In this document: positions 1-14,384 of the stretch, in pieces
Numbering within the stretch: position 1 is the stretch's first letter
Layout of the letters: each line of letters opens with the position of its first letter
NCBI GenBank assembly: GCA_018780035.1
Contig: JADMKE010000003.1
Coordinates: 18,753-82,752, forward strand
DNA from: Candidatus Sericytochromatia bacterium
GTDB lineage: Bacteria; Cyanobacteriota; Sericytochromatia; UBA7694
DNA: 64,000 nt
Reading direction: 5' to 3'
The notes under the pieces: model-generated
Database searches by the model: none
Seen by the model: the letters and a program-made list of their open reading frames with translations, nothing else
What the model was told of the DNA's origin: nothing
Translations under genes and position numbers: made by a program

Positions 1-189
1 GGGATCAAACAGTCCATTTTGGTTTAAAAAATGCCAATAGGCCTGTGAGGTGGTGGCAAATCCATCGGGCACCCGGATGCCCTGACGTGATAAATGTTGA
101 ACCATCTCACCGAGGGAGGCATTTTTGCCACCAACCTCTTCTATATCTTCAATGCAAATCTTTGAAAAGGGTTTAATAAAGCTGTTCAT
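1..189 (-). CDS. PEP synthase / pyruvate phosphate dikinase-family protein, N-terminal fragment (gene runs off the window to the left)
   Basis: Minus-strand translation from the ATG at 189..187 reads MNSFIKPFSKICIEDIEEVGGKNASLGEMVQHLSRQGIRVPDGFATTSQAYWHFLNQNGLFD. This matches the conserved PpsA N-terminus (VGGKNASLGEM...G..VP.GFATT). A GGAG Shine-Dalgarno sits upstream. It is not in the ORF track because it is truncated by the window edge. Confidence 0.7.
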   Translation of the reverse strand, partial: MNSFIKPFSKICIEDIEEVGGKNASLGEMVQHLSRQGIRVPDGFATTSQAYWHFLNQNGLFDP

Positions 190-227
190 ATCTAACTCTC
201 CATGCTCTCTTGATGTTCTCTGTCGGT

Positions 228-497
228 TTAATCTTCGTCTTCAACTTCAATGCGAATTAACAGGATTGATTGGGCATCGGGGGCGTTTGGATCGCTGTCC
301 TCTTCGATGATTAATTCTGCACCCTCGCAGCGGGTGCCCCTGACGGCATGTTCAAAGTGTTCGCGAAAATGGGAGCCTGAAATATGTGCCAAAGCCCCAA
401 TTTTGACCGAAACACTGACCACACGGCTGGCATTTTCGCGTTGCGCGGTGTCTTCAATTTTTCTGAGCAAATTGGCCAAAAGCGAAAATTCATGCAT
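228..497 (-). CDS. hypA: Hydrogenase nickel-incorporation protein HypA-like, short form lacking the CxxC...CxxC zinc finger
   Basis: Starts at the internal MHEFSLL (HypA MHE nickel-binding N-terminus). It aligns to HypA through ...AEGAELIIEE and ends with LLIRIEVEDED, the HypA C-terminal tail. The roughly 27 residues carrying both CxxC motifs are absent. It overlaps the upstream protease gene by 8 nt. Confidence 0.65.
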   Translation of the reverse strand: MHEFSLLANLLRKIEDTAQRENASRVVSVSVKIGALAHISGSHFREHFEHAVRGTRCEGAELIIEEDSDPNAPDAQSILLIRIEVEDED

Positions 498-981
498 GGG
501 GTATTTCTCCTTGAAATATTTGAAAATAGGCGGGGTAGCGGTTGTGGATTCGCAACAATAATTCTGGCAGGGCAGCAGTGACAATCGGGGAAAGCCCTGT
601 GCCTGAGCCAAAGTCGGCTCCTTCGATGCCAAACAGCGTTAGGGCTTGGGGCAATTCCCCCAAGGCCTTGGCCATTTCAATCGCTTCGGCCACACTGAAG
701 GCATGGGTGGAATAGTGAAAAAAACGTGAGGGAATGACCTGTTCTGAGGCCTCCAGCTCAAAGACCGTGCCAGGCAGCGCGCCAGAACAGACCGCGTCTA
801 CCAGCACAACCTGCTCATGCCCTTGCCAAGCCGCCATCAACGAACTGCCTTCGCCACTTTGGGTCTGCAGTTCGACTCCCTGCAAGTCTGACCTTTGCAG
901 CAGTTTGATGATGGCTGGGCCCAGGCCGTCGTCTTTGCGAAAGCCATTGCCAATGCCGAGGACCAAAAGCGGTTTTAACAT
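490..981 (-). CDS. [NiFe]-hydrogenase maturation endopeptidase (HyaD/HybD/HoxW family)
   Basis: N-terminal LVLGIGNGFRKDDGLG motif, about 160 aa. Sits in the hydrogenase operon and overlaps the pntB stop by 7 nt. Confidence 0.8.
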   Translation of the reverse strand: MLKPLLVLGIGNGFRKDDGLGPAIIKLLQRSDLQGVELQTQSGEGSSLMAAWQGHEQVVLVDAVCSGALPGTVFELEASEQVIPSRFFHYSTHAFSVAEAIEMAKALGELPQALTLFGIEGADFGSGTGLSPIVTAALPELLLRIHNRYPAYFQIFQGEIPHA

Positions 982-2414
982 GTTTTGAACTCCCGAATCA
1001 GGGTTTGCAGGGATTCTCGGGCGTCGCCAAAGAGCATGCGGCTGTTGTTTAAAAAGAAGAGCGGATTGTCGATGCCCGCAAACCCTTGGCCCATCGAGCG
1101 TTTGAGAATGATCACATTGTGCGCTTTTTCGGCATCCAAGATCGGCATGCCGTAAATCGGGCTGTGGGGATCGCTGTGGGCTGAAGGATTGACGATATCG
1201 TTGGCGCCAATTACCAAACAGACATCAACACGGGGCAGCCGGGTATTGGCCTCTTCCAATTCGAGCAATTGTTCATAAGGGACATTGGCCTCTGCCAACA
1301 GCACATTCATATGGCCGGGCATGCGTCCTGCTACCGGGTGAACCGCGTAAAAGACCTCTGTGCCGCGTTTGTTTAAAAGTTCGGCCAATTCAAACACGGC
1401 GTGTTGGGCCTGGGCCACAGCCATGCCATAACCGGGGATAAACATCACAGTTTCTGCGCTCTCCAGCAGGTAAAAGGCCTCTTCGCCGGTCAGGGGATGG
1501 GCGTGCAGGGCGGGCCCTGTGGCACCCGCTGCGGCAGCACTGGCGCCAAAATGGCCAAAGAGCACCTGGGCCAAGCTGCGGTTCATGGATTTACACATGA
1601 TCTGGGTCAGGATCAAACCACTGGCCCCCACCAAACAGCCCGTGACAATTAAGACCTTGTTGAGCAAAACAAAACCCACGGCACAGGCTGCCAGCCCAGA
1701 AAAGGCATTGAGCAGGGAAATCACCACGGGCATGTCGCCTCCGCCAATCGGCAAAACAGCCAAAACCCCCAAGAGCAGGGCCAAGCCCCCTGCGATCAGC
1801 AAAAGCGCAAAAGGGGGCGAGGGCAAAGCCAAGTAGAGCAATCCCAAGCCCAAGCTCAGACAAAAAAGCAGGAGATTGATCAGGCCCTGGCCGCGAAAGC
1901 GCAGGGGTTTGCCGCTGAGTTTTTCCGAGAGTTTGGCCCAGGCGATCAGGCTACCACTGAAGGTGATACCGCCAATCAAAACCGAGAGATAACCCGCTCC
2001 ACTGGATAAAACGCCGAGCGCCGGGCGAATCAGGGTCTCTGCCAGGGCCACCAAAACAGAGGCCAAGCCCCCCAAACCATTTAACAGGGCCACCATTTCG
2101 GGCATCCCCGTCATCGGCACCCGCAGGGCCAAAACCACCCCCAGGGCGGTGCCGATCAACAGCCCCAATAAGATCCACTGAAAATGCAGGCCCGTGCTCA
2201 ACAGCGTGGCCAAAATGGCCAATAACATTCCCCCCGCAGAGAGCAAATTGCCTTGGCGGGCAGAGGTTTGTTTGCCCAGCAATTTTATCCCCAAGACAAA
2301 GGCCACTGCAGAAAAAACATATAAAAACTCGCGGGCCAGATTCAGATCCAGGTTCAGATTCAGGTTCAGATTCTGGGCATTCAAGAAAGGTAGACTCAAG
2401 CCAAGCACACTCAT
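975..2414 (-). CDS. pntB: NAD(P) transhydrogenase subunit beta (PntB), with an N-terminal (NL)6 extension
   Basis: Multi-TM N-terminal region, then a C-terminal NADP(H)-binding dIII domain (GYGMAVAQAQH...VHPVAGRMPGHMNVLLAEA...LVIGANDIVNP...ILKRSMGQGFAGIDNPLFF). ATGA overlap with pntAA2. Confidence 0.9.
   Translation of the reverse strand: MSVLGLSLPFLNAQNLNLNLNLDLNLAREFLYVFSAVAFVLGIKLLGKQTSARQGNLLSAGGMLLAILATLLSTGLHFQWILLGLLIGTALGVVLALRVPMTGMPEMVALLNGLGGLASVLVALAETLIRPALGVLSSGAGYLSVLIGGITFSGSLIAWAKLSEKLSGKPLRFRGQGLINLLLFCLSLGLGLLYLALPSPPFALLLIAGGLALLLGVLAVLPIGGGDMPVVISLLNAFSGLAACAVGFVLLNKVLIVTGCLVGASGLILTQIMCKSMNRSLAQVLFGHFGASAAAAGATGPALHAHPLTGEEAFYLLESAETVMFIPGYGMAVAQAQHAVFELAELLNKRGTEVFYAVHPVAGRMPGHMNVLLAEANVPYEQLLELEEANTRLPRVDVCLVIGANDIVNPSAHSDPHSPIYGMPILDAEKAHNVIILKRSMGQGFAGIDNPLFFLNNSRMLFGDARESLQTLIREFKTC
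2337..2375 (-). repeat. Hexanucleotide tandem repeat (about 6 units) encoding (Asn-Leu)6 at the PntB N-terminus
   Basis: Plus strand cagattcagatccaggttcagattcaggttcagattctg. Minus-strand translation NLNLNLNLDLNL. Confidence 0.85.
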
Positions 2415-2701
2415 GAGGGCGGTCCCGCAGAATCGGATTTTTTCTCAAACATGTTTAACATGCGGTCGGTGACCACATAGCCCCCGACCACGTTGACCGT
2501 GGCAAAGATCACCGCAGCCGTGCCCAAGAGGGTCCCCCAGAGGGAATGCCCCGAACCCGCAGCCAAGATCGCCCCCACCACCGTGATCCCTGAAATGGCG
2601 TTGGAGCCCGACATCAGGGGGGTGTGCAATTGTGAAGGCACACGGGCAATGAGTTCAAAGCCCAAAAAAGCGGAGAGAATGAGGATCAACAGCAGTTCCA
2701 T
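2411..2701 (-). CDS. pntA: NAD(P) transhydrogenase alpha subunit part 2 (PntAA2, small membrane subunit)
   Basis: Start taken at MELLLILILSAF (ATG 2701..2699), which overlaps the stop of the upstream pntAA as ATGA. Hydrophobic 3-TM sequence typical of the split PntA membrane part. The ORF-track N-terminal extension overlaps the upstream gene and is rejected. Confidence 0.75.
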   Translation of the reverse strand: MELLLILILSAFLGFELIARVPSQLHTPLMSGSNAISGITVVGAILAAGSGHSLWGTLLGTAAVIFATVNVVGGYVVTDRMLNMFEKKSDSAGPPS

Positions 2702-3858
2702 CAGCCCAGCCTCCCTTGCCAAAAATTTTTGAGTTTGGCCTGTTGCCATTCGCCGTGAGAGGTCAGCAAAGCGGCCGTGTAGATTTCGTTGTGGGGATCC
2801 AAAACCCATGTTTTTGTTTCTGCTTGCGCTTGGCTATCTGCCAATTCTTTGAGCAAAAAATACAGATTGGCGGAATACATCCGACTGGCGTCGTGGGGCA
2901 CCCGGCCAGCCAAATTGCGGTAGCCGATCAATTTCACACCTTTGCGTTCGATCAGCTGATCAGCAACGATCCCTTCCACATTGCCGCCACTGTCCACGGC
3001 CCCATCGACCACAACCGAACCCGGTTTGAGCAGATCCAACAGGGCCTCTGTCAGAATCAGCGGCGCGGGTTTGCCAAAAACCTGTGCGCTGGTGATCACC
3101 ACGTCGCTGTGGGAGACAGCCTCGGCCAAACCTTCGGCCTGTCTTTTGAGTTGTTCTGAACTGACCGCTGTGACATAGCCTTCTGCATTGGTCTCGGTGG
3201 AGGAGAGGGCAATTTGAATGGCCCGCGCCCCCAGGGACAAAATTTGCTCTGAGGCTTCCGGGCGCAGATCATAGCCCTCGACCCGCGCCCCCAGTCGCCG
3301 GGCTGTGGCGATGGCCTGCAGGCCCGCAACCCCTGCGCCAATCACCAAGACCCGTGCTGGTTGCAGGGTTCCGGCTGGGGTGCTCATCATGGGAAAGACC
3401 CTGGGCAAATATTCTGCCGCCAACAAAACCGCCACATAACCTGCCAAACTGGCTTGAGAGGTCAGGGCATCCATGGCTTGGGCCCGGCTAATGCGGGGAA
3501 TCCACTCCATGCTCAGGGCCCTGATTTTGTTGGCGAGGCAGACTTGCAAAAGGGCCTGATTCTGAAAGGGATTCAAATAGCTAATATGCAGGGCCTTGGG
3601 GGAGACTCCCGCCATTTCTTCGGGTGGGGGTGGATTGAGGCGCAAAATGAGATCCGATTCTGCCAAGATCTGCCGCCGGTCTGTTAACACCGTGGCACCC
3701 ATCTCCAGATAGGCACTGTCGGGAATCTTCAGGCTTGCTGCCAGATCCGCTTCGATCTGCACCGCTAAGCCCAGGGCCTTGAGTTTGTTGACCTCAGCGG
3801 GCAAAAGTGGCACACGGGCCTCTTCGCGCTGACTTTCACGGGGGACCCCCACGATCAT
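2701..3858 (-). CDS. pntA: NAD(P) transhydrogenase alpha subunit part 1 (PntAA, dI NAD(H)-binding, alanine-dehydrogenase fold)
   Basis: [18 protein letters not shown] start and Rossmann VLVIGAGVAGLQAIATARRLGARV, typical of PntAA. The ATG overlaps the hydrogenase large-subunit stop (ATGA). Confidence 0.9.
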   Translation of the reverse strand: MIVGVPRESQREEARVPLLPAEVNKLKALGLAVQIEADLAASLKIPDSAYLEMGATVLTDRRQILAESDLILRLNPPPPEEMAGVSPKALHISYLNPFQNQALLQVCLANKIRALSMEWIPRISRAQAMDALTSQASLAGYVAVLLAAEYLPRVFPMMSTPAGTLQPARVLVIGAGVAGLQAIATARRLGARVEGYDLRPEASEQILSLGARAIQIALSSTETNAEGYVTAVSSEQLKRQAEGLAEAVSHSDVVITSAQVFGKPAPLILTEALLDLLKPGSVVVDGAVDSGGNVEGIVADQLIERKGVKLIGYRNLAGRVPHDASRMYSANLYFLLKELADSQAQAETKTWVLDPHNEIYTAALLTSHGEWQQAKLKNFWQGRLG

Positions 3859-5153
3859 GCGCGCGCCACCTCCAATTTGAGGAAATGGGTCGAGCAGGAG
3901 ATGCAGGGGTCGTAATTGCGAATGGCCTGTTCGCAGAGATGTTGCAATTCGGGGTCGGCTTTGTCCAAATACAAGGGCAATAAATGCCGCAAATCTGCTT
4001 CGATGGTCTTCTGGTTCTGCGAGGTCGGCGGCACAATTTTGGCATTAAGAATCAGCCCATTGGCATCAATCTCGTAGCGGTGATAACAGATGCCCCTGGG
4101 GGCTTCGGTACAGCCATGGCCTTTTCCCGCTTTAAGAGGCCCAGACACAAACGCCGTATCGGGCTTTTGGTAAAGTTCAATCAGGCGCAGGGCTTCTTCC
4201 AGTGCGTAGAGGGTTTCCAGGCTGCGCACCAAAATGCTTTTAAACGGGTTGTGGCAATGTTCAGCAATCCCCACTTCTTCGGCGAGGGCTTTGACACTGG
4301 GGCTGAGTTGCTCAAAATTGAGGTTGTACCGTGCCATGGGCCCGACAAAATAGGCCCCATGGCCAGTGTGGATGGAATGCAATGCCGTCGAGCGGGCCAC
4401 GTGTTCTTCTTCAAAATGTCTTTCGTATTCAGAGATGGGAATATCCAGGCCCAAATTGGAGACCAAGCGGCCTTCGTGAATGGCGTATTCGCTCGGGTGT
4501 TTGAGGGCCACATATTCATATTCCCGCTCAAAGGCTGGGAATTCAAATCCTGCCACCCAGCGCAGGGTTTCTATTGCCGCTTCCCGCGCCCATTCCAATT
4601 CGGGTTTCAGCGCAAGCAATTCTGTTTTTTCGGGCAGGCGGTAAAAGCCCCCCACCTGTAAATTGATCGGGTGGATTTCCCGGCCACCCAAAAGGGTCAT
4701 CAGGGTATTGCCAATTTTTTTTAAACGCAAACCGCGTTTGACGGCTTCTGGCGCGACTTTGGCCAGGGCCACCGCATCTGGAAAACCGAGAAAATCTGGG
4801 GCGTGTAACATGTAAATATGCAAAACATGGCTTTCGATCCACTCGCCGCAGTAGATCAGCCTGCGCAAACTGCGCAAAGGTTCGGGGACTTCAAGTCCGA
4901 GAATCGCTTCCATGGCCTGCACGGCCCCCATTTGGTAGGCAATCGGGCAAATGCCGCAGATCCGCGAGGTGATGTCTGGCGCTTCGCGGTAGTCGCGGCC
5001 CCGCAAAAAGGCCTCGAAGAAGCGGGGTGGCTCAAAAATTTTCAGTTGGACTTCTTCCAATGTGCTGCCGTTCATTTGGATATACAGCGCCCCTTCCCCC
5101 TCGACCCGGGCCAGGTAGTCCACAGATATGATCCGGCGTTTTTTCTCACTCAT
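3855..5153 (-). CDS. [NiFe]-hydrogenase large (alpha) subunit, group 3b sulfhydrogenase-like
   Basis: N-terminal [10 protein letters not shown] and C-terminal DPCISCSTH nickel-ligand motifs. Start chosen at [13 protein letters not shown] (ATG 5153), preceded by GAGGAG at -13. The longer ORF-track start overlaps the small-subunit gene. Confidence 0.85.
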
Positions 5154-5910
5154 GCTGCAGGCTCTCCTCTCGAAAGGCGGGGGCATTGCTATTAAAGCCC
5201 CGGTATAATCGGACCAATTCGGCTTCACTGACCCCCAAAGATTTAAACGCTTGGCTCAATGCCGCCGGATGGGGGGAATCCGAGGGGCCAAAACAGCCAT
5301 AACAGCCCCGTTGGTAGGCTGGGCAAATCGCGCCACAGCCCGCGTGGGTCACTGGGCCCAAACAGGGGATTCCCTGTGAGACCATGACACAGACCGTGCC
5401 CCTGAGTTTACATTCATGACAGACACTTTCGCTGGGCAAATGGGGCTTGCGCCGGTTTAAGAGGGCGTTGATCAGCTCCAGCAATTGGTTTTTATTGATC
5501 GGGCAGCCCCGCAATTCAAAATCGACTTTGATATGCTCGGAGATCGCCGTGGATTGGCTGAGGGTTTGAATGTATTCGGGCCGGGCGTAGACCATGCGCA
5601 TAAAATCTTCGACAGCCTGAAAATTGCGCAGGGCCTGAATCCCCCCAGCGGTGGCACAGGCCCCAATGCTGATCACCCAAGTTGATTGGGCCCGAATGGC
5701 TTCGATCCGCTCCAAATCGTGGGGGGTGGTGATGGAGCCCTCGACCAGAGAAATGTCATAGGGGCCCGCCACCACCGCCCGGCTGGCCTCTGGAAAATGG
5801 GCAATTTCAAGGGCCTCTGCCACCATCAGCAATTCGTCTTCACAGTCCAATAAACTGAGCTGGCAGCCATCACAGGAGGCAAATTTCCAAACAGCCAATT
5901 TGGGTTTCAT
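5146..5910 (-). CDS. [NiFe]-hydrogenase small (delta) subunit, group 3 type
   Basis: [22 protein letters not shown] Fe-S cluster-binding N-terminus and a C-terminal Cys cluster ([11 protein letters not shown]...[15 protein letters not shown]). Confidence 0.85.
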
Positions 5911-6750
5911 TTAGACCTCCCGGGTATTCAAAAGAGATTGGACCTTGTCATAGCGAAAGACAGGGCCGTCTTTGCAAATAAAGTGGGGGCCATATTGGCA
6001 GTGGCCACAGAACCCCACGGCACATTGCATATTGCGCTCCAAAGAGACATAGATCTGTTCGGGCTTAAGGCCTTTTTCCAAGAAGGTGTGGGCACTGTAG
6101 CGCATCATAATTTCGGGGCCGCAGATCAGGGCCAAAGTCCGATCGGCATCCAGGTCTTGGGCTTGGATCAGCGAAGTCACCACCCCTACCCGGCCCTGCC
6201 AGCTCTGTGTGGCTTGATCGAGGGTGATATGCACGGCGATCTCTGCACCTGTCTGCCAGGACAGCAATTCGTCGGCATAGAGGATTTCTGCATGTTGTCG
6301 GGCACCATAGAGCAAGGTCAGCGAACGGATTTCAGAGCGCATCGCCAGCGCGGCATAAATCACAGGCCGAACAGGGGCCAAACCCAGCCCCCCGGCCACA
6401 ATCACCAAATCTTTGCCTTTGGCTTTGTGTAAGGGCCAGGCGGAGCCAAAGGGCCCACGAATGCCCAGTGATTGCCCTGGTTTGAGTTCAGCCAAGGCGT
6501 TGGTCACAGCTCCCACTTTGCGAATGGTGTGGATTTGCGCCGAGGTGTTTTCGGGCGAGCCTGAGATTGAAATGGGCACTTCTCCCACCCCAAAGACATA
6601 GAGCATATTAAACTGCCCTGGCCGAAACGGATTGAGCGTCTGGACACGCGTTTGCACTTCAGGCTTTTCACAACTCAGGCTAAAGGTCTGAGGGGTTTCC
6701 CAGCGAAAATCGCTGATACGCCAGACCTCTGGCAAAAGCGCTGGGCTCAT
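5911..6750 (-). CDS. Hydrogenase gamma subunit, FAD/NAD(P)-binding oxidoreductase with C-terminal 2Fe-2S (AsrB/PyrK-like)
   Basis: FNR-like fold ([42 protein letters not shown]) and a C-terminal [17 protein letters not shown] cluster motif. Confidence 0.8.
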
Positions 6751-7208
6751 TTTTGATCTCCATAGAAATCCAATAATTGTAATCGCGTGGCCTGCAGTCG
6801 TTCTACCATCATTTGTCCAAAGCGGCGTTGGATCAAATACCCCATTTCATGGTCTGTTTCACATTGCTCCAAAAAGGCTTTGGCATCAAAGACCAGAATT
6901 TGGCTTTCTTCGAGGGCCTGGGCATCAAAATGCCATTTATACGGGGGATAGAGCCAAGACCAGCCCAGCAGATCCCCTTCATGCAGGGTTTGGATCCGCA
7001 CACTGCCCCGCTGTGAAGAAAACATTTCAATCGCCACCGTGCCCGATTGAATCAGGTAAAAGGCTTCCGCTTTGCCGCCCAATTTAAACACAAAATCGTG
7101 AGCGGCAAAGGTCTGAAGGTGTGCGCAGCGAATCAGGGCCTGCAGATAGGGGGTGGGTAAATCTTTAAAATGGCGTTGTTTGCGGATCGCGTCCTCTTTA
7201 ATTTCCAT
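6747..7208 (-). CDS. Stand-alone cyclic-nucleotide-binding (CAP effector) domain protein embedded in the hydrogenase operon
   Basis: 153 aa with the full cNMP-binding beta-roll pattern (FVFKLGGKAEAFYLIQSGTVAIE...GSVRIQTLHEGDLLGWSWL...ALEESQILVFDAKAF) and no HTH. AGGAGA Shine-Dalgarno 6 nt upstream of the ATG. ATGA overlap with the gamma subunit. Confidence 0.7.
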   Translation of the reverse strand: MEIKEDAIRKQRHFKDLPTPYLQALIRCAHLQTFAAHDFVFKLGGKAEAFYLIQSGTVAIEMFSSQRGSVRIQTLHEGDLLGWSWLYPPYKWHFDAQALEESQILVFDAKAFLEQCETDHEMGYLIQRRFGQMMVERLQATRLQLLDFYGDQK

Positions 7209-7219
7209 GGGGGTTCTCC

Positions 7220-8392
7220 TTATGTTTTTGTTTGTAATGCGTTCAAAGCTTCAATTTCTGAGGTGAGATCGATTCCCACCGGGCACCAGGTAATACAGCG
7301 GCCACAGCCGACACAGCCCGATTGGTCAAATTGGTCCTGCCAAAAGGCCAGTTTGTGGCTGATCCACTGTCGGTAGCGTGCGCCTGGGCTTTGGCGAATC
7401 GGCCGACCCGCAGTAAGTGTAAAATTCAATGAAAAACAGGAGTCCCACTCACGCCAGCGCTCACTGCTTGTGCCTGCCAAGTCGGTCACTTCTTGAACCC
7501 CCGAACAAAAACAGGTGGGGCAAACCAGGGTGCAATTGCTGCAACTCAGACAGCGCTCTCCCACGTCTTTCCAATGGGTGCTTTCATACCCACTTTTTAA
7601 GGCCGCGCTGGCCTGTTCGGGATTCAAACTGCGGCCCATCTGTGCTGCCGCCGCTGTCCACAACGCATTTTCTTTTTCCAGCAGTGTTGCTGGAGCATGG
7701 CTTGGGTTGCAGTGTTTGAGCAGCTCAGCCCCTTTGGCGCTGCCGGCACGGGCCAGATAACAGGGCTCTGCGGTTTCAAGCATTTCAGTGATGGCCAGAT
7801 CGTAACCGGGCCCGGCTGCTGGGCCTGCCTCCATCGAGACACAAAAGCAGGTATTGCCGGGCTCGGTGCAGTTCACAGCCAAAATAAAGATCTGTTCCCG
7901 TCTTTCCCGGTAAAAATCATCGCTGTAAGGGCCTTCGAGAAAGACCCTGTCTTGGATTTGAATCGCTTTGAGTTCACAGCCACGCACGCCAATCATGGCG
8001 TATTTGGGCACTTCCTGATCGGGGGCCGTGATCTGCAAACCACGGCTGTTTTGTTCCGCTCTCATCAACAATTGCCGGGGTGGGTAGAGGTATTTTTTCC
8101 AAGCTTGGGGGCCCACAACATAGCCAAACAAGGCTGCATCGTCTCGGGACCGCAAGCGGTAAGAGCCTTTTCCTTGAATATCGCCGATACCCATCGGCAG
8201 ATCCGCTGTACTCTGAATGCGGTCGTAGACAATGGCCTGATCCCTGACCACGGGGCCCACGGTCTGATACCCAGCGGCCTGTAATTGGCTGAGCAGCAGA
8301 TCCAAATGCAGGCGCTGAAGAAGTACGACTTCTGTTTGCATCTTCCCTGATTCCCCCGTTTCTCGGCTCCTTTGAGGAAACACGATCCTCAT
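7220..8392 (-). CDS. Hydrogenase beta subunit, 4Fe-4S ferredoxin-type (AsrA-like)
   Basis: CLSCSNCTLVCPTCFC and CVGCGRCITWCPVGI cluster motifs. The start may instead be the internal MQTEVV at 8341 (GGGGGA Shine-Dalgarno). Confidence 0.75.
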   Translation of the reverse strand: MRIVFPQRSRETGESGKMQTEVVLLQRLHLDLLLSQLQAAGYQTVGPVVRDQAIVYDRIQSTADLPMGIGDIQGKGSYRLRSRDDAALFGYVVGPQAWKKYLYPPRQLLMRAEQNSRGLQITAPDQEVPKYAMIGVRGCELKAIQIQDRVFLEGPYSDDFYRERREQIFILAVNCTEPGNTCFCVSMEAGPAAGPGYDLAITEMLETAEPCYLARAGSAKGAELLKHCNPSHAPATLLEKENALWTAAAAQMGRSLNPEQASAALKSGYESTHWKDVGERCLSCSNCTLVCPTCFCSGVQEVTDLAGTSSERWREWDSCFSLNFTLTAGRPIRQSPGARYRQWISHKLAFWQDQFDQSGCVGCGRCITWCPVGIDLTSEIEALNALQTKT

Positions 8393-8513
8393 CTACAGCA
8401 TGGCTGATTATCCCTTAATTATCTTTGATGGATCTGCAGTCTGAAATTGATCTTGATCAGGAAACTTCAAATACGCCAGATAAAATAGTAATAAAGCGTT
8501 AAACTGAGAATAC
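8393..8513. promoter_or_regulatory. Divergent promoter region between the hydrogenase operon and carAB
   Basis: 121 bp AT-rich spacer between divergently oriented first genes. No specific boxes assigned. Confidence 0.4.
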
Positions 8514-9566
8514 ATGAAACCCCAGCCACGAAATTCTGTCGGAGTACATACCAAAAATGCCCAATTTGCAGGCTTTTCTTGGGCTTATCCCCGCAATATT
8601 CGTGCAGAAATTGTCATTTATACAGGGCTGACGGGGTATCTTGAAGCCCTAACAGATCCGTCTTATCAGGGGCAAATTCTGGTGTTTACCTCTCCCCAAG
8701 TGGGCAATTATCTGCCTGATTTGACCCGGATGCAGTCCCCCCGGATTCAAGTCGCCGGTCTGGTGGTCAGGGCCTATAGCCCGCCTCCAGAGCGCCCAAA
8801 CCAAGTCACTTTGGCCCAGCTTTTGCACACAGCCCAGATCCCGGCCCTGATGGGGGTCGACACCCGCAGTTTGACTTTGGCGCTGCGCCAAGACACCCAA
8901 ACCAGGCGCGAAGTCGCGCTGATCACCGCGCCGGGAGCGCCGATTGAAAATCCCGCCTTGCCCCATCCCGCTCAGGTCGCAATTCGGGCCCCGTATTTGC
9001 ACAAGGGTGGCGAAAAAACAGTGGTCTTGGTGGATTGTGGCGTCAAAAAACAGCTTTTAGACCTGCTGCTGCAGGCAGGTTTAAGTGTTTGGCAGGTTCC
9101 CTGGGACTATGATTGGCGGGATTTGCCCCATCAGGGCCTGTTGCTTTCAAATGGCCCAGGCAATCCCGCTGAGTGTGAAACCACAATTTCGATTTTAAAA
9201 GCCGCTCTCAATCCGCAGATCCCTGTTTTGGGCATTTGTCTGGGGGCACAATTGCTCGGCCATGCGGTGGGAGCAAGCACCGCTCCCCTGCCTTTTGGCC
9301 ACCGGGGGGCCAATCATCCCTGCCGCGATCGTTTGAGTGGGGCCTGTTATATCACCGCCATGAATCATGGCTATGCGCTTGTTTCGGAGAGTTTGCCCCC
9401 GGAATGGCATCTTTGGTTTGAACATCTCCACGATGGCAGTTGTGCAGGCCTGAAACACCGTGTATTTCCTTGGCGGGGGGTGCAATTTCACCCGGAGGGC
9501 TGCCCTGGCCCCACAGACACGGCATTTATCCTTGAGGATTTTCTGAGCGAGGTTCTCGATGCCTGA
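8514..9566 (+). CDS. carA: Carbamoyl-phosphate synthase small (glutaminase) subunit
   Basis: CarA N-terminal domain plus class-I glutamine amidotransferase motifs (GICLGAQLL, GHRGANHP). Confidence 0.9.
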   Translation: MKPQPRNSVGVHTKNAQFAGFSWAYPRNIRAEIVIYTGLTGYLEALTDPSYQGQILVFTSPQVGNYLPDLTRMQSPRIQVAGLVVRAYSPPPERPNQVTLAQLLHTAQIPALMGVDTRSLTLALRQDTQTRREVALITAPGAPIENPALPHPAQVAIRAPYLHKGGEKTVVLVDCGVKKQLLDLLLQAGLSVWQVPWDYDWRDLPHQGLLLSNGPGNPAECETTISILKAALNPQIPVLGICLGAQLLGHAVGASTAPLPFGHRGANHPCRDRLSGACYITAMNHGYALVSESLPPEWHLWFEHLHDGSCAGLKHRVFPWRGVQFHPEGCPGPTDTAFILEDFLSEVLDA

Positions 9567-12237
9567 ATCCGTTTTGGTGCTGGGCTCGGGGCCGATTCAA
9601 ATTGGCCAAGCAGGGGAGTTTGACTATGCCGGGGCCCAGGCCCTCAAAGCGCTCAAAGAAAAGGGGTTCCGCACCCTTTTGTTAAATTCGAATCTGGCCA
9701 GTGCCCAGACGCTGGGGGTCTTTGCCGATCGCGTGTTTGCCCTGCCACTCTCACCCGCCTCGGTAGAAACTATTCTGGCAAGTGAAACCCCAATCGGGGT
9801 TTTGGCGGGATTTGGCGGCCAATCGGCCCTCAATTTGGCCTTGGAACTCGATCAAGCAGGGCTGTTAAAGCGCTTGCCCCTGCTCGGCACCGCTCTGGAG
9901 ACCCTGATGATCTGTGAAGATCGCTTGAAGTTTTTTAGATTTTGTCAGAATCTGGGTTTGCCAGTTCCCAAGACCTATGTTTTGTCGGATCTCTCGGCCT
10001 TTAATACTGAATTAAACGCAACAGACGTCTTTCCCTTGCTGCAGCGCAAAAGTTTTGCCTTGGGGGGCCAAGGCGCGGTCTTTTATCCCAACTTGGCGGC
10101 ATTGTGGGCAGATCCCGGCCTCAAAGATCGTTTGAACCCCGCAGCACTTTTAAACGCGCCACTTCTGCTCGAAGAAGATCTCAGGGGCTGGCAAGAAATC
10201 GAGTTTGAAGTTTTGGCAGATGCTGCGGGCAATCAATTGGTGGTCTGTGCCACTGAAAACATTGACCCAATGGGCATCCACACGGGGGACAGCTATGTGG
10301 TCACGCCGCCGATGACATTGAGTGATACCAGCTATTTTGAGCTGCGGGCGGCAGCCTTGAAATTGGTCTCCGCCCTGAAATTGGTCGGGGAATGCAATGT
10401 GCAATTTGCTTACCATCCCAAATGCGGCGACTACCGCCTGATCGAATTGAACCCCCGTTTGAGCCGCAGTTCTGCGCTGGCCTCCAAAGCCACGGGTTAT
10501 CCGATCGCCTATGTGGCCACCCAATTGGCCTTGGGTGCGCTTTTGCCAGACATCGCCCATCCGCTAACGGGGGGCACCTCCTGTTTCTTTGAACCGGCCC
10601 TGGACTATGTTGTGGTCAAAGCTCCCCGGTGGCAATTTGACAAATTTCCGGGGGCCGATCGGCATTTGGGGCCCGAGATGAAATCCATCGGTGAAAACAT
10701 GGGGATCGGGGAAGATTTTGCTTCTGCCTTTGCCAAAGCCTGGGCCATGACTCAAACATTGCCCCTGCCCCATTGGTCAAACAGCGCTTTGCGGCAAGAA
10801 TTGGCCTGTCCCACAGATTTGCGCATGTCGGCCCTGTTTTCGGCATTCGAACAGGGCCTGGATTTGGCTGAAATTGAGGCCTTAACAGGGTTCTCTGGCT
10901 GGTTTTTGCAGGCCTTTAAAGATCTGGCACCCTCGCTCAAAACGGGCCGACTTGGTTTTTGGGGCTTTCGCCAAATCGACACCTTGGCGGGCGAGTTTCA
11001 GGCCCAAACGGCTTATCTCTACGGTGGCCAAGCCCTTGAATACACCTTCGGGCCAGGGCCCTGGGTCTTGATTCTGGGCAGTGGGCCCTATGGGATTGGC
11101 AGCTCGGTTGAATTCGACTTTTGCTGTGTCAGCGCGATTTATGCCTTGCAAGCGGCGGGGTACAAGGTGGCTTTGCTGAATTCAAATCCAGAAACCCTGA
11201 GTACAGATTGTGATGTGGCGGATGCCTTGATCTTTGAGCCGCTGCTGCCTGAAAGCCTGAATGCGGTGGTGGCTGCACTCAGACCCGTGGGGATCTTGGC
11301 TTCGCTGGGGGGGCAAACACCCCAGAATTTATTGCAGGTCTTGCCCCGGCATTGGCCTTTTTGGGGCCCGCCGCTAGACCAGATTTTAAAAGCTGAAAAT
11401 CGCCTGGCATTTGCCCTGGCCCTGGATCAATTGCAGATCCCCCAGGCCCCTTGGGCCAAAGTGACATCTTTGGCTGACGCTTTGGCGTTTGGCCAAAAGG
11501 TCGGATACCCACTGATCTACCGTCCCGCGTTTGTCTTGGGGGGCGGGGGTATGCAAGTGATTAAAAATGCCCAAGCATTAGAAAAATGGGGCGATTTATT
11601 GCAGCTCCAGGGGCCTTTGCCCCGTACAGAGGGGGCCTTGCTGAACCGCTTTTTGGCGGAGGCCCAAGAGTTTGAACTCGATGGCATCGCCCGTTTGGGG
11701 CATTTGGAATATTATCTGTTTTCAGAAAATATTGAACCCTCAGGCATTCATTCCGGGGATTCTCACCATGTCTTCCCGGCCCAAAGCCTGTCCCCTGAGG
11801 TGCGCGCCCAGGCTTTGACTTATGCAATAACTTTGGCACAATCGTTTGAACTTCACGGTTTGTTTAATCTCCAGTTTTTTTACCATCAAGGTGCGGTTTT
11901 GCTGGTCGAAGCCAATTTGCGCGCTTCCCGCAATCTGCCTTTTTTGAGCCATGTTTCGGGCCAGAACCTGGTCAGTTTGGCGATTGAGCGCCTGCTTTCA
12001 GACGCCCCCTTGGCAGAAGCCCCTGTCGAAATCAGCGCAGATCAGGTTGGAATCCGTGTGCCGACGTTTTCTTGGGAGCGCATGTGCGGGGCCAAACGAG
12101 AATTGGGGGTGGAAATGAAGGCCACTGGCGAGTTTTGTCTGCTGGCGGACAGCTTTGAAAACGTGCTTCAGCTGTGTTATACTTTGCCAGATTTTTGTGC
12201 CTTCACACCGTCTTGGCGCCTCTCCAAAGGAGAATGA
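9559..12237 (+). CDS. carB: Carbamoyl-phosphate synthase large subunit, compact 892 aa form lacking the C-terminal MGS-like allosteric domain
   Basis: MPESVLVLGSGPIQIGQAGEFDYAG start. Two ATP-grasp halves, the second starting near WVLILGSGPYGIGSSVEFDF. The protein ends right after the second synthetase half. Overlaps carA by 8 nt. Confidence 0.85.
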   Translation: MPESVLVLGSGPIQIGQAGEFDYAGAQALKALKEKGFRTLLLNSNLASAQTLGVFADRVFALPLSPASVETILASETPIGVLAGFGGQSALNLALELDQAGLLKRLPLLGTALETLMICEDRLKFFRFCQNLGLPVPKTYVLSDLSAFNTELNATDVFPLLQRKSFALGGQGAVFYPNLAALWADPGLKDRLNPAALLNAPLLLEEDLRGWQEIEFEVLADAAGNQLVVCATENIDPMGIHTGDSYVVTPPMTLSDTSYFELRAAALKLVSALKLVGECNVQFAYHPKCGDYRLIELNPRLSRSSALASKATGYPIAYVATQLALGALLPDIAHPLTGGTSCFFEPALDYVVVKAPRWQFDKFPGADRHLGPEMKSIGENMGIGEDFASAFAKAWAMTQTLPLPHWSNSALRQELACPTDLRMSALFSAFEQGLDLAEIEALTGFSGWFLQAFKDLAPSLKTGRLGFWGFRQIDTLAGEFQAQTAYLYGGQALEYTFGPGPWVLILGSGPYGIGSSVEFDFCCVSAIYALQAAGYKVALLNSNPETLSTDCDVADALIFEPLLPESLNAVVAALRPVGILASLGGQTPQNLLQVLPRHWPFWGPPLDQILKAENRLAFALALDQLQIPQAPWAKVTSLADALAFGQKVGYPLIYRPAFVLGGGGMQVIKNAQALEKWGDLLQLQGPLPRTEGALLNRFLAEAQEFELDGIARLGHLEYYLFSENIEPSGIHSGDSHHVFPAQSLSPEVRAQALTYAITLAQSFELHGLFNLQFFYHQGAVLLVEANLRASRNLPFLSHVSGQNLVSLAIERLLSDAPLAEAPVEISADQVGIRVPTFSWERMCGAKRELGVEMKATGEFCLLADSFENVLQLCYTLPDFCAFTPSWRLSKGE

Positions 12238-14384
12238 GTTCAAACGTGGATTTTGAGCCCCCCCACAGCGATGATTGGATTGAATTGACCCAGTTGGAAG
12301 ACCTCCTGCCGCCAGCCAGTGTGGCGGACCCCGCGTCCCCACTTTTGCCGCCGGCCCCCGAGCGTTATACCTTTATGGGCACCGTCGGCAAAGGCGCCAT
12401 GGGTGAGGTTTTGCTGGCCCAAGATGTGCATTTGCGTCGCAAAGTGGCCTACAAAAAAATCCTGCCGCAGATGGCTGTCAGTCAGCAGGTGTTGAGCCGC
12501 TTTTTTGCCGAAGCGCAAATCACCGCCCAACTCGACCATCCGGCCATTATTCCGGTTTACAACCTGGAAGTCAGTCCCGAAGGCCAAATCGCCTATTCGA
12601 TGAAGCTGATTCAGGGCAAAACCCTCAAAGAGCTGATCAGCGAAGCCCGCGAGCAATACCAGGCCGGACAAAAGCCCGATCCCCAGCACAGTCTCGATGC
12701 CCTGCTCAGGCATTTCCTCAAAGTCTGTGATGCCCTCTATTTTGCCCATATCAAAGGGGTGATTCACCGCGATCTCAAACCCGCCAATATCATGGTGGGC
12801 ATGTACCACGAGGTCTATGTGATGGACTGGGGCATTGCCCGAATTATGGGTGGGGCCGAAGCCCGGATCGATGACGAGGTGGTCAGGTTGATTCATCCCG
12901 ATGCCGATGCGCCCCCGCTCGAACGCACCCAAATGGGCCAAATCATGGGCACACCGCGTTATCTTTCACCTGAGCAGGCTGCCGGGAAAAACGATTTGCT
13001 CGATGGCCGCAGCGATCTCTTTGCCCTGGGCCTGATCCTGTTTGAATTGGTGACGCTCAAACCGGCGTTTACAGCCAAGACCCAGATCGAACTCCTCAAA
13101 AAAATCCTCAAAGCCGAAAAAGAGCCGCTGGAACACAGCCAAGCGGGTGTCAAAATTGCCAAAGAATTAGAGGCGATTATTCACAAAGCCACCGCCCGGC
13201 GCAAAGAGCACCGTTATGCTGATGTGGCCGAATTGGCCGAAGATCTGCGCCGCTATTTGCGGGGCGAAGCGGTGCTTGCGCGCCCGGATCGTTTTTGGCA
13301 AAAGACCCGCCGTCAGATGATGCGACACCGGCAGGCCACGCTGTTGGGGCTGTCTCTGTTGGTTTTTCTCTCGCTCAGTGGTGCAGCAGGGTTATTGGCC
13401 TTGCGCAGCCAGGCCATGTTGGCGGCACGGGCCCACGAACAGCGTCTGGGGGACTTTCTCGAAACCGTGGCAGAGCGCAGCCGTTTGCTCGACCGGCAGT
13501 TTTTTCTGACGGAGATGGCGCTGGAAAGTCTGGCGGCGATTGTGACCGAGGCCCTGTTTCAGGGGGAACGCAGTGATCAACGCCTGTATCTGGACGGAGA
13601 TTATGCCCAAGTGCCTCCCCCAGATTTTGGCTTTGCGCCCCGCTATGGCAAAGCGATCAGCACGGCCTGGCCGGTGTTTAAATTGGCCCCTGGCAGTGAT
13701 TTAAACGCCCTGCGTGGGAAAATGCAGAAACTCAATCGCCTGCATTTGGATCTGGGCCGCCTCTTTTTGCGCGGGCAATTGGGCAATTTGCCTGTGCCGC
13801 CACCTGCGCAATTGCGCCAGAAGATTGTGAACGGGGAAGGCACCCTCTTGCGTTGGGTCTTTGCGGGGCTCAAAGAGGGCCTGATGTTTGCCTATCCCGG
13901 CAAAGGGGGCTATCCCGCTGATTACGATCCCAGGCAACGCCCCTGGTACAAACAAAGTGCTCAGACCCGGGGGTTGCACTGGCAAAAACCCTATTTGGAT
14001 GTGCAGGGCCAAGGCCTGATGTTGACCTGCACCCGTGCACTGTATGACTATAACGAGCGCTTTTTGGGCGTCGCAGGGGCAGAAATTGCCCTCAAAGACA
14101 TTCTCAAATTATTGCCCCTGCCCGATGCCCGCGCCCGCAAGGTCTATTTGCTGAATCAGGCCATGCAGGTGGTTGCCGAACAGAGCACAGGCCAAGCGGC
14201 CAAGACCATGGGCGCGGCGGGCCAACGTTTGGCTTTTCCCTGGCCCGAAGCCCTGCCCGCTTTGCGTGCCCGCGACAGTGGCTTTGTTAACCAGGGCCAA
14301 ACGCTGTTGGTCTTTTACCGCCTGGATATTCTCGGTTGGACCTATGTGGTCGAAGCCGATCAGGCTTTGGAGCTGCAGCCATGA
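12234..14384 (+). CDS. Receptor Ser/Thr protein kinase with periplasmic Cache-like sensor domain
   Basis: Start at MSSNV (AGGAG Shine-Dalgarno, ATGA overlap with carB). Gly loop GKGAMGEV, VAYK lysine, HRDLKPANIM catalytic loop, DWG in place of DFG, SPE motif. A TM helix (LLGLSLLVFLSLSGAAGLLAL) follows. The C-terminal extracytoplasmic domain carries a Cache signature (PWYKQS...W.KPYLDVQGQGLMLTCTRALYD...FLGVAGAEIAL). Confidence 0.8.
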   Translation: MSSNVDFEPPHSDDWIELTQLEDLLPPASVADPASPLLPPAPERYTFMGTVGKGAMGEVLLAQDVHLRRKVAYKKILPQMAVSQQVLSRFFAEAQITAQLDHPAIIPVYNLEVSPEGQIAYSMKLIQGKTLKELISEAREQYQAGQKPDPQHSLDALLRHFLKVCDALYFAHIKGVIHRDLKPANIMVGMYHEVYVMDWGIARIMGGAEARIDDEVVRLIHPDADAPPLERTQMGQIMGTPRYLSPEQAAGKNDLLDGRSDLFALGLILFELVTLKPAFTAKTQIELLKKILKAEKEPLEHSQAGVKIAKELEAIIHKATARRKEHRYADVAELAEDLRRYLRGEAVLARPDRFWQKTRRQMMRHRQATLLGLSLLVFLSLSGAAGLLALRSQAMLAARAHEQRLGDFLETVAERSRLLDRQFFLTEMALESLAAIVTEALFQGERSDQRLYLDGDYAQVPPPDFGFAPRYGKAISTAWPVFKLAPGSDLNALRGKMQKLNRLHLDLGRLFLRGQLGNLPVPPPAQLRQKIVNGEGTLLRWVFAGLKEGLMFAYPGKGGYPADYDPRQRPWYKQSAQTRGLHWQKPYLDVQGQGLMLTCTRALYDYNERFLGVAGAEIALKDILKLLPLPDARARKVYLLNQAMQVVAEQSTGQAAKTMGAAGQRLAFPWPEALPALRARDSGFVNQGQTLLVFYRLDILGWTYVVEADQALELQP

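Follow-up and report, generated by a model that had tools for sequence, protein, structure and literature searches.

Transhydrogenase genes inserted into a group 3b [NiFe]-hydrogenase operon in one clade of Blackallbacteria and Sericytochromatia

A stretch of 64,000 nucleotides (nt) from contig JADMKE010000003.1 of Candidatus Sericytochromatia bacterium, hereafter called the window, carries an operon-like unit in which the genes of a group 3b [NiFe]-hydrogenase (hyd) are joined with those of a proton-translocating transhydrogenase, PntAB (pnt). Seven of its ten genes make up a stock bacterial 3b operon; among them the gene of a cyclic-nucleotide-binding-type (cNMP) domain protein, the maturation protease gene and a short hypA are not novel. 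The unusual feature is an insertion of pntAA-pntA2-pntB between the hydrogenase large-subunit gene hydA and the protease gene. It combines two known systems in a way that is new and, so far, confined to one Blackallbacteria/Sericytochromatia clade. The reading that we favour, with modest confidence, is that a stock 3b operon acquired pnt in a single insertion, is driven by one FNR/CRP-type-controlled promoter and serves as a module for NADH-to-H2 conversion assisted by the proton-motive force. Hydrogenases of group 3b have a wide distribution among aerobes and facultative anaerobes, and there is as yet no agreed account of how these enzymes produce H2 from NAD(P)H although the midpoint potential is unfavourable.

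The unit comprises ten consecutive open reading frames (ORFs), all on the minus strand, that run from position 8392 to 228 in the order hydB, cNMP-domain gene, hydG, hydD, hydA, pntAA, pntA2, pntB, HycI-type protease gene and short hypA. Each identity was confirmed by Pfam and NCBIfam profiles. Eight of the nine junctions overlap or abut. Three of these are of the ATGA type, namely cNMP/hydG, pntA2/pntB and hydA/pntAA, the last joining hydrogenase to transhydrogenase without a spacer. The hydG and hydD genes abut (TAAATG), pntAA overlaps pntA2 by 1 nt (TGATG) and pntB overlaps the protease gene by 7 nt (ATGTTAA), while 8-nt overlaps are found at hydD/hydA (ATGAGTGA) and at protease/hypA (ATGCATGA). 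At the remaining junction, hydB/cNMP, there is an 11-nt spacer containing AGGAG. A GGAG or GGAGG motif lies 6-10 nt 5' of every internal start, within the preceding gene. The gene identities, the order and the tight coupling claimed in an earlier note on this DNA were thus borne out; its statement that all ten genes overlap or abut, several through ATGA, stands for eight junctions, three of them ATGA, and fails for hydB/cNMP. The gene that it called HypA does have the N-terminal domain of that family and is only an 89-amino-acid short form.

Identical gene order and overlap types are found in independent NCBI, JGI, ENA and Logan assemblies, which rules out a chance arrangement, an assembly artefact or a chimera. 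We infer that the hyd and pnt genes are co-transcribed as one unit. The protease and hypA genes lie downstream of pnt, so their expression needs read-through or reinitiation across pnt. There is no promoter-like site or spacer at hydA/pntAA (by a weak consensus scan), and the HydA-specific protease is encoded beyond pnt; both agree with the single operon proposed earlier. The scan for sigma-70 consensus sites, which is uninformative and provides weak evidence, gave three promoter-like sites against 5.0 expected, with none near pnt. A similarly uninformative consensus scan for terminators yielded no terminator-like match between any two genes on the strand of the operon, and no RNA family was matched in an Rfam scan of positions 1-9000.

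The hydA/pntAA boundary has one more peculiarity. The Shine-Dalgarno sequence of pntAA, GGAGG (3859-3885, minus strand), coincides with the Leu-Glu-Val codons of the HydA C-terminal tail, i.e., of the peptide cut off by the maturation protease, and it is kept in locus L002 (loci of the comparison are designated by L and a number).

To place the operon among its relatives we used a scan with HydA limited to one genome per species. At least 570 relatives were obtained, of which the best 80 loci were inspected, together with a few pnt contexts. Gene content of the loci was determined by tblastn with all ten window proteins, and all trees are neighbour-joining (NJ) trees. In 77 loci from other phyla (Ignavibacteria, Zixibacteria, Nitrospinota, Planctomycetota, Acidobacteriota, Chloroflexota and others) HydA is 60-67% identical to that of the window. 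The order HydB-cNMP-HydG-HydD-HydA is present in 57 of the 58 such loci with enough upstream sequence. A protease gene begins at most 700 nt after hydA in 57 of 67 loci, and in 18 of those it is followed by the short hypA. Among these best-scoring relatives, pnt genes were found by tblastn in none of the 77 other-phylum hydA loci.

The nearest loci belong to metagenome-assembled genomes labelled Candidatus Blackallbacteria or Candidatus Sericytochromatia. The ten-gene order and the kinds of overlap are identical in L001 (PntAA 93% identical to that of the window), L091/L092 (86%), L093/L094 (71%), L002 (70%), L095 (56%) and L099/L100 (50%; NCBI GCA_002781665.1). Thus pnt occupies the same position in at least five diverged lineages, and the hyd-pnt synteny expected of a real unit persists in relatives whose PntAA is as little as 50% identical. 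The genes flanking the operon in L095 and L099 are entirely different from those of the window, which means that the ten genes are kept together as a block.

In an NJ tree of the window PntAA and its 120 best homologues, the nine PntAA sequences of the hyd-linked type form an exclusive clade (bootstrap 200/200). The next-best homologues (L096, L081-L089) come from ordinary pntAB contexts. The HydA tree contains a matching clade of 11 members (200/200), whose earliest branch, P0124 (L102/L103), has the canonical hydA-protease-hypA order without pnt. The simplest history is that pnt was inserted once, in an ancestor of a Blackallbacteria/Sericytochromatia clade, after the P0124 branch had split off. 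A scan of metagenome contigs with PntAA, usable as a negative control only, returned just 10 loci of at most 50% identity, none of them with hyd genes.

The assignment of the hydrogenase to group 3b, also made in the earlier note, is supported by both sequence similarity and subunit composition. In phmmer searches of the PDB, HydA (3855-5153, minus strand; NiFeSe_Hases, top NCBIfam match ShyA/HydA) scores 223-229 bits against group 3b enzymes and is aligned with them end to end; the enzyme of T. kodakarensis (5yxy) gives 229 bits and P. furiosus SHI (9nez/9e15) about 225. The scores are lower for group 3c Mvh (182 bits), HydABCSL (165), group 3d (136), group 3a (about 135 or less) and groups 1 and 2 (at most 107). 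The metal-ligand motifs RICGIC and DPCISCSTH are both present and align with those of 5yxy. They are followed by a nine-residue C-terminal tail, FLKLEVARA, which by its sequence is the predicted peptide cleaved off by the protease.

The other three subunits complete the four-subunit 3b set. The beta subunit HydB (7220-8392, minus strand, with an alternative ATG at 8341) is an AsrA-like 4Fe-4S protein (Fer4_22, 2.1e-32) with the sulfhydrogenase family ShyB/HydB as its best NCBIfam match. The gamma subunit HydG (5911-6750, minus strand) is an AsrB-like diaphorase with FAD/NAD(P) and 2Fe-2S domains (NAD_binding_1, DHODB_Fe-S_bind; NCBIfam hydrogenase gamma, AsrB and ShyC/HydG), and the delta, or small, subunit HydD (5146-5910, minus strand) matches Oxidored_q6 (2e-24) and, best in NCBIfam, ShyD/HydD. 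Sulfhydrogenase families are the first NCBIfam match for all four subunits. The NCBIfam equivalog cut-offs are missed by a wide margin (269.9 vs 700 for ShyA and 249 vs 880 for HydA, with similarly large shortfalls for beta, gamma and delta). Therefore we regard the enzyme as a bacterial 3b relative and not as an ortholog of the archaeal SHI/SHII enzymes.

The transhydrogenase is of the split type: the soluble domain I (dI), the alpha-2 subunit with four transmembrane helices and the beta subunit with domains II and III (dII, dIII) are encoded consecutively. PntAA (2701-3858, minus strand) is the alpha-1 subunit, i.e., the NAD(H)-binding dI, with matches to AlaDh_PNT_N (8.9e-56), AlaDh_PNT_C (1.1e-34) and positions 1-345 of NCBIfam PntA. 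PntA2 (2411-2701, minus strand) is the alpha-2 subunit of 96 amino acids with the four helices (PNTB_4TM, 1.3e-33; T. thermophilus alpha-2, 4o9p, 6.8e-24). PntB (975-2414, minus strand) comprises the membrane domain dII and the NADP(H)-binding dIII and covers positions 2-455 of the 456 of the PNTB profile (4e-176, 587 bits). Alignments with the enzymes of T. thermophilus and E. coli cover PntB and PntA2 completely, and PntAA is full-length as well. In the full-length alignments of PntB to 4o9u and 9l76 the motifs of the dIII NADP(H) site, AGRMPGHMN, GANDIVNP and KRSMGQGFAG, are kept (regions of R350, D392, K424 and R425 of the E. coli beta subunit). The Pnt proteins exceed the Pfam gathering scores widely. 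They miss the NCBIfam equivalog cut-offs, with 335.7 vs 383 for PntAA, where the model describes a fused alpha subunit of 510 amino acids, and 453.5 vs 689 for PntB.

Two side observations concern the Pnt proteins. A hexanucleotide repeat CAGATT/CAGGTT of about six copies (2337-2373, minus strand) encodes an (Asn-Leu)n stretch in an N-terminal extension of PntB. The stretch is four residues shorter in the 97%-identical L001, which suggests that the repeat is prone to length variation by slippage. The extension itself is found in some lineages and is not universal within the clade. In addition, PntAA is only 50-56% identical within the hyd-linked clade (the window vs L095 and L099), compared with 47-54% to other phyla, whereas PntB is 70-73% identical within the clade vs 53-59% outside. 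By these identities the NAD(H)-binding subunit seems to be evolving unusually fast in the hyd-linked clade.

The 121-nt intergenic region between the divergent carA and hydB contains a candidate FNR/CRP-type operator at 8447-8460, TTGATCTTGATCAG, with one mismatch to TTGAT-N4-ATCAA. Next to it is the sole promoter-like match on the minus strand upstream of the operon, TTCAGA-16-GATAAT at 8418-8445, with its -10-like hexamer at 8418-8423; this is a consensus match only. The computed distance from the box centre to the -10 hexamer is about 30.5 nt, a spacing that would fit the geometry of class II FNR/CRP activation (about -41.5). The block TTTCCTGATCAAGATCAATTTCA around the box is identical in L001, L091, L093 and L002, against a background of diverged intergenic DNA. 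In L095, L099, L101 and L102, too, hydB is preceded by a box with no more than one mismatch. Overall, an FNR-type box was found in all 10 clade promoters examined vs 2 of 58 loci from other phyla, where a distance of up to 300 nt from hydB was allowed. Oxygen is probably the signal, and the operon would then be induced when oxygen is low.

One lineage of the clade shows what happens when the unit is broken. A single 37.8-kb contig (L097 and L101) carries pntAA-pntA2-pntB-protease-hypA-ppsA about 20 kb from hydB-cNMP-hydG-hydD-hydA. The split point is exactly hydA|pntAA, and pnt was kept with the HydA-specific protease and HypA. L097/L098 had been considered a derivative without a hydrogenase, which was withdrawn because hydBGDA is located on the same contig about 20 kb away. 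A perfect box, TTGATTTGCATCAA, is located upstream of the split-off pntAA in L097. Since a box precedes both of the separated operons, hyd and pnt appear to share a regulator even where they are apart. Locus L003 groups with the split lineage; there, no pnt was found after hydA within 23 kb, and a pyruvate:ferredoxin oxidoreductase (PFOR) gene adjoins hydB. PFOR genes stand beside hydB in three lineages without pnt after hydA: L003 (3016-6705), L101 (3058-6618, divergent) and L104 (815-5517). A DHO_dh-like gene is next to PFOR in L101 and L104. These neighbourhoods hint at a recurrent association of pyruvate oxidation with the 3b hydrogenase.

Taken together, synteny and co-regulation suggest a dedicated module connecting H2, NADPH, NADH and the proton-motive force. 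The E0' of H+/H2 (-414 mV) is more negative than that of NAD(P)H (-320 mV), which means that H2 evolution is favoured by a higher NADPH/NADP+ ratio. PntAB normally uses the proton-motive force to drive hydride transfer from NADH to NADPH and can lift NADPH/NADP+ well above NADH/NAD+. In the scenario that we favour, an ancestral operon hydB-cNMP-hydG-hydD-hydA-protease-short hypA, encoding a cytosolic, NAD(P)-linked hydrogenase of the Hyh type, would have gained the three-polypeptide proton-translocating transhydrogenase between hydA and the protease gene. The whole unit would be transcribed from the FNR/CRP-type-controlled promoter upstream of hydB, with coupled translation. One promoter and coupled translation would mean that hydrogenase and transhydrogenase are made together, and HydBGDA and PntAB would share one NADP(H) pool. 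When oxygen is limiting, PntAB would spend proton-motive force on moving hydride from catabolic NADH to NADP+, and NADPH/NADP+ would be held high enough for HydBGDA to discharge electrons as H2. In principle every step could also run backwards, and the direction of flux given here is the presumed one. Hyh of M. smegmatis, a group 3b hydrogenase, is induced by hypoxia and gets rid of reductant by producing H2 (bioRxiv 10.1101/2023.09.11.557286). The model of NADH-to-H2 discharge fits the behaviour of Hyh as well as the recurrent PFOR and phosphoenolpyruvate (PEP) synthase neighbours.

A number of points weigh against this scenario. The co-transcription of hyd and pnt is a prediction from the DNA sequence, and the comparison covers the best 80 loci of at least 570 HydA relatives plus a few pnt contexts. 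The split of about 20 kb in L097/L101 and the lack of pnt within 23 kb in L003 mean that hyd-pnt adjacency is not obligatory. Proteins of the CRP/FNR family sense many things, and a box of this type need not report low oxygen. Expenditure of proton-motive force under oxygen limitation is costly. We presume HydG to be specific for NADPH, and the hydrogenase subunits fall well short of the NCBIfam equivalog cut-offs set for the NADPH enzymes of archaea. Finally, both proton-relay histidines of characterised transhydrogenases are absent: there is Asn at the position of E. coli betaHis91 and Ser at that of T. thermophilus alpha2His42. The same Asn/Ser state is observed in the unlinked homologues L082, L086-L089 and L096. 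For this reason we rejected the histidine loss as a mark of a specialised or uncoupled Pnt; nor is it proof of lost pumping. Judging from these residues, the Pnt subfamily made up of this enzyme and a subset of its ordinary relatives would have a third arrangement of the proton path.

Synteny and co-regulation are compatible with either direction of flux, and both enzymes are reversible. The operon could thus work in uptake: HydBGDA would oxidise H2 to make NADPH, and PntAB, running in reverse (NADPH + NAD+ to NADP+ + NADH), would export protons, so that H2 would supply NADPH for biosynthesis and NADH for respiration and would strengthen the proton-motive force. The aerobic respiratory chains of Sericytochromatia could reoxidise the NADH (PMC6349859). 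We nevertheless consider this direction fairly unlikely, because the only well-studied bacterial 3b enzyme is a hypoxic H2 producer, the PFOR genes beside hydB in L003, L101 and L104 point to fermentative electron disposal, and the FNR-type box suggests that the operon is induced under a shortage of respiratory acceptors, when NADH is already in excess. A different explanation disconnects the two enzymes altogether, pntAB being kept in a suitably regulated operon for NADPH supply (lipid or storage synthesis, stress defence) and not serving the hydrogenase. It would agree with the need of hypoxic M. smegmatis for NADPH in triacylglycerol synthesis while Hyh is active (bioRxiv 10.1101/2023.09.11.557286), with the splitting of the operon without loss of either part and with Pnt proteins free of extra domains. 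Mere co-regulation is unlikely in our view, given that the insertion lies inside the hydrogenase structural and maturation unit and not at its end, that its position was held while PntAA diverged to 50% and genomic neighbourhoods changed, and that after the split pnt stayed with the HydA-specific protease and HypA instead of becoming free-standing.

The link could also be a physical one, with HydBGDA docked on membrane PntAB. Such a supercomplex would channel NADP(H) and act as a proton-translocating H2:NAD(P)+ oxidoreductase. Translational coupling would fix its stoichiometry, and the fast divergence of PntAA (50-56%, against 70-73% for PntB) could reflect a new interaction surface. The PntB of some lineages also carries the N-terminal extension. 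A supercomplex is very unlikely: the proteins have no extra domains, linkers or fusions, the extension is not universal in the clade, and the L097/L101 split shows that separate expression is tolerated. Highly doubtful, too, is the more specific version in which NADP(H) would shuttle or stay bound between HydG and Pnt dIII of a membrane-associated HydBGDA-PntAB complex working as a reversible proton-translocating H2:NAD+ oxidoreductase. If true, it would be a previously unknown build of energy-converting hydrogenase, a soluble 3b enzyme plus a transhydrogenase, in the sister lineage of Cyanobacteria.

The operon resembles the known bacterial 3b operons (M. smegmatis Hyh, 'synton-4' of Frankia and the 3b cluster of R. 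equi) in having the beta subunit gene, a cNMP gene between the diaphorase genes, the gamma subunit gene, small and large subunit genes and a protease gene. Unlike them, it has pntAA-pntA2-pntB between hydA and the protease gene, and unlike M. smegmatis Hyh it appears to be controlled through an FNR-type box and not by DosR. The archaeal SHI/SHII of P. furiosus and the cytosolic NiFe-hydrogenase of T. kodakarensis provide the nearest solved large subunits and share the alpha-beta-gamma-delta set and the metal-ligand motifs. We know of no cNMP gene and no pnt in archaeal sulfhydrogenase operons. On the transhydrogenase side, the split into a soluble dI and a four-helix alpha-2, with a full-length beta, is that of T. 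thermophilus alpha1/alpha2/beta (4o9u) and Rhodospirillum rubrum PntAA/PntAB/PntB, which differ in not being embedded in a hydrogenase operon. Another resemblance would be functional. The confurcating HydABC/HydABCSL, Nfn combined with ferredoxin hydrogenases, and the group 4 Ech/Mbh also bring in extra energy to bridge the gap of about 100 mV between NAD(P)H and H+/H2. They do so through ferredoxin and flavin-based bifurcation or a membrane-integral hydrogenase, whereas here the proton-motive force is proposed to act on NADPH/NADP+ via a separate transhydrogenase.

The literature that we searched on 3b hydrogenase, sulfhydrogenase, transhydrogenase, Sericytochromatia and Blackallbacteria contains no description of the hyd-pnt linkage, which agrees with the earlier note, whose author was not aware of such a unit. 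The sequences themselves are public and automatically annotated. Pnt is not mentioned in the main study of hydrogenases in lineages that are siblings of Cyanobacteria (PMC6349859). The linkage suggests a connection between hydrogen metabolism and the membrane potential by way of the NADPH pool. It leads to a hypothesis open to testing, in which the proton-motive force would drive H2 evolution by raising NADPH/NADP+ or, with the flux turned round, H2 would contribute to the proton-motive force by way of Pnt. A defined trait of hydrogen metabolism is also gained for the Blackallbacteria/Sericytochromatia, non-photosynthetic lineages related to Cyanobacteria that are used for inferring the metabolism of cyanobacterial ancestors. 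For engineering, the linkage would represent a natural ferredoxin-free design for the conversion of NADH to H2.

The accessory genes of the operon have features of their own. The cNMP-domain gene (6747-7208, minus strand) is a conserved member of bacterial 3b operons and encodes 153 amino acids with PF00027 at residues 32-119 (5.8e-14). No helix-turn-helix or other DNA-binding domain was matched in the Pfam profile search, and the canonical phosphate-binding cassette is replaced by GWSWL.PPY.WHFDA, which is near-invariant across 78 loci. For Frankia and Rhodococcus equi, the presence of a cNMP gene within 3b clusters has been noted before (PMC11879354, PMC13332983). The two features of the protein make the label "transcriptional regulator" used in the literature doubtful. 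By its sequence, the protein may have a ligand that is not a cyclic nucleotide, and its target may be the enzyme and not DNA.

The protease gene (490-981, minus strand) encodes a maturation endopeptidase of the HycI/HybD type (TIGR00072, 110.4 bits vs the cut-off of 47.45; PF01750). The last gene of the ten, at 228-497 (minus strand), encodes a protein of 89 amino acids that starts with MHEFSL and hence has the MHE nickel-binding N-terminus; the HypA profile matches it at positions 1-66 of 112 only. It contains no CxxC and thus lacks the zinc domain, and we class it as a HypA-like N-domain protein. The same CxxC-less form of 86-91 amino acids is encoded 3' of the protease gene in all clade loci and in 23 other-phylum loci (including L010, L014-L016, L018, L019 and L022). 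This recurrence shows that the short HypA is no truncation; it is a variant conserved in association with bacterial 3b operons.

The cluster probably extends beyond the left edge of the window and would include at least 15 genes, a PEP-synthase-like (ppsA-like) gene and hyp genes among them. The 5' end of the ppsA-like gene, with its ATG and N-terminal sequence, lies at 1-187 (minus strand), 40 nt downstream of hypA, and is cut by the window edge. In L091 (12655-19146) a full-length PPDK_N/PEP-utilizers gene is found at the same place and is followed by hypF-hypC-hypD-hypE with overlaps. The near-identical locus L001 (14972-21046) has a ppsA-like gene and then ORFs that match the L091 hyp genes in size and order. 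A PEP synthase gene also follows hydA in L104, and in M. smegmatis such a gene, MSMEG_3934, is located near the 3b operon (bioRxiv 10.1101/2023.09.11.557286).

Other parts of the window were surveyed as well. Sites close to TTGAT-N4-ATCAA occur nine times in the window vs 2.96 expected; the eight sites other than the one before hydB, at 15824, 39208, 41083, 43408, 46714, 47050, 60679 and 62152, may mark further members of the same regulon. None of the genes at 12-31 kb (kinases, a channel, an ice-binding-like protein, a photolyase) is related to hydrogen metabolism. Among them are a tandem pair of Ser/Thr protein kinases that carry Cache sensor domains at the C-terminus, located downstream of carB (12174-16489, plus strand), and an 869-amino-acid protein in which five Big_5 repeats are combined with an ice-binding-like domain (26284-28893, plus strand), both unrelated to the hydrogenase operon.

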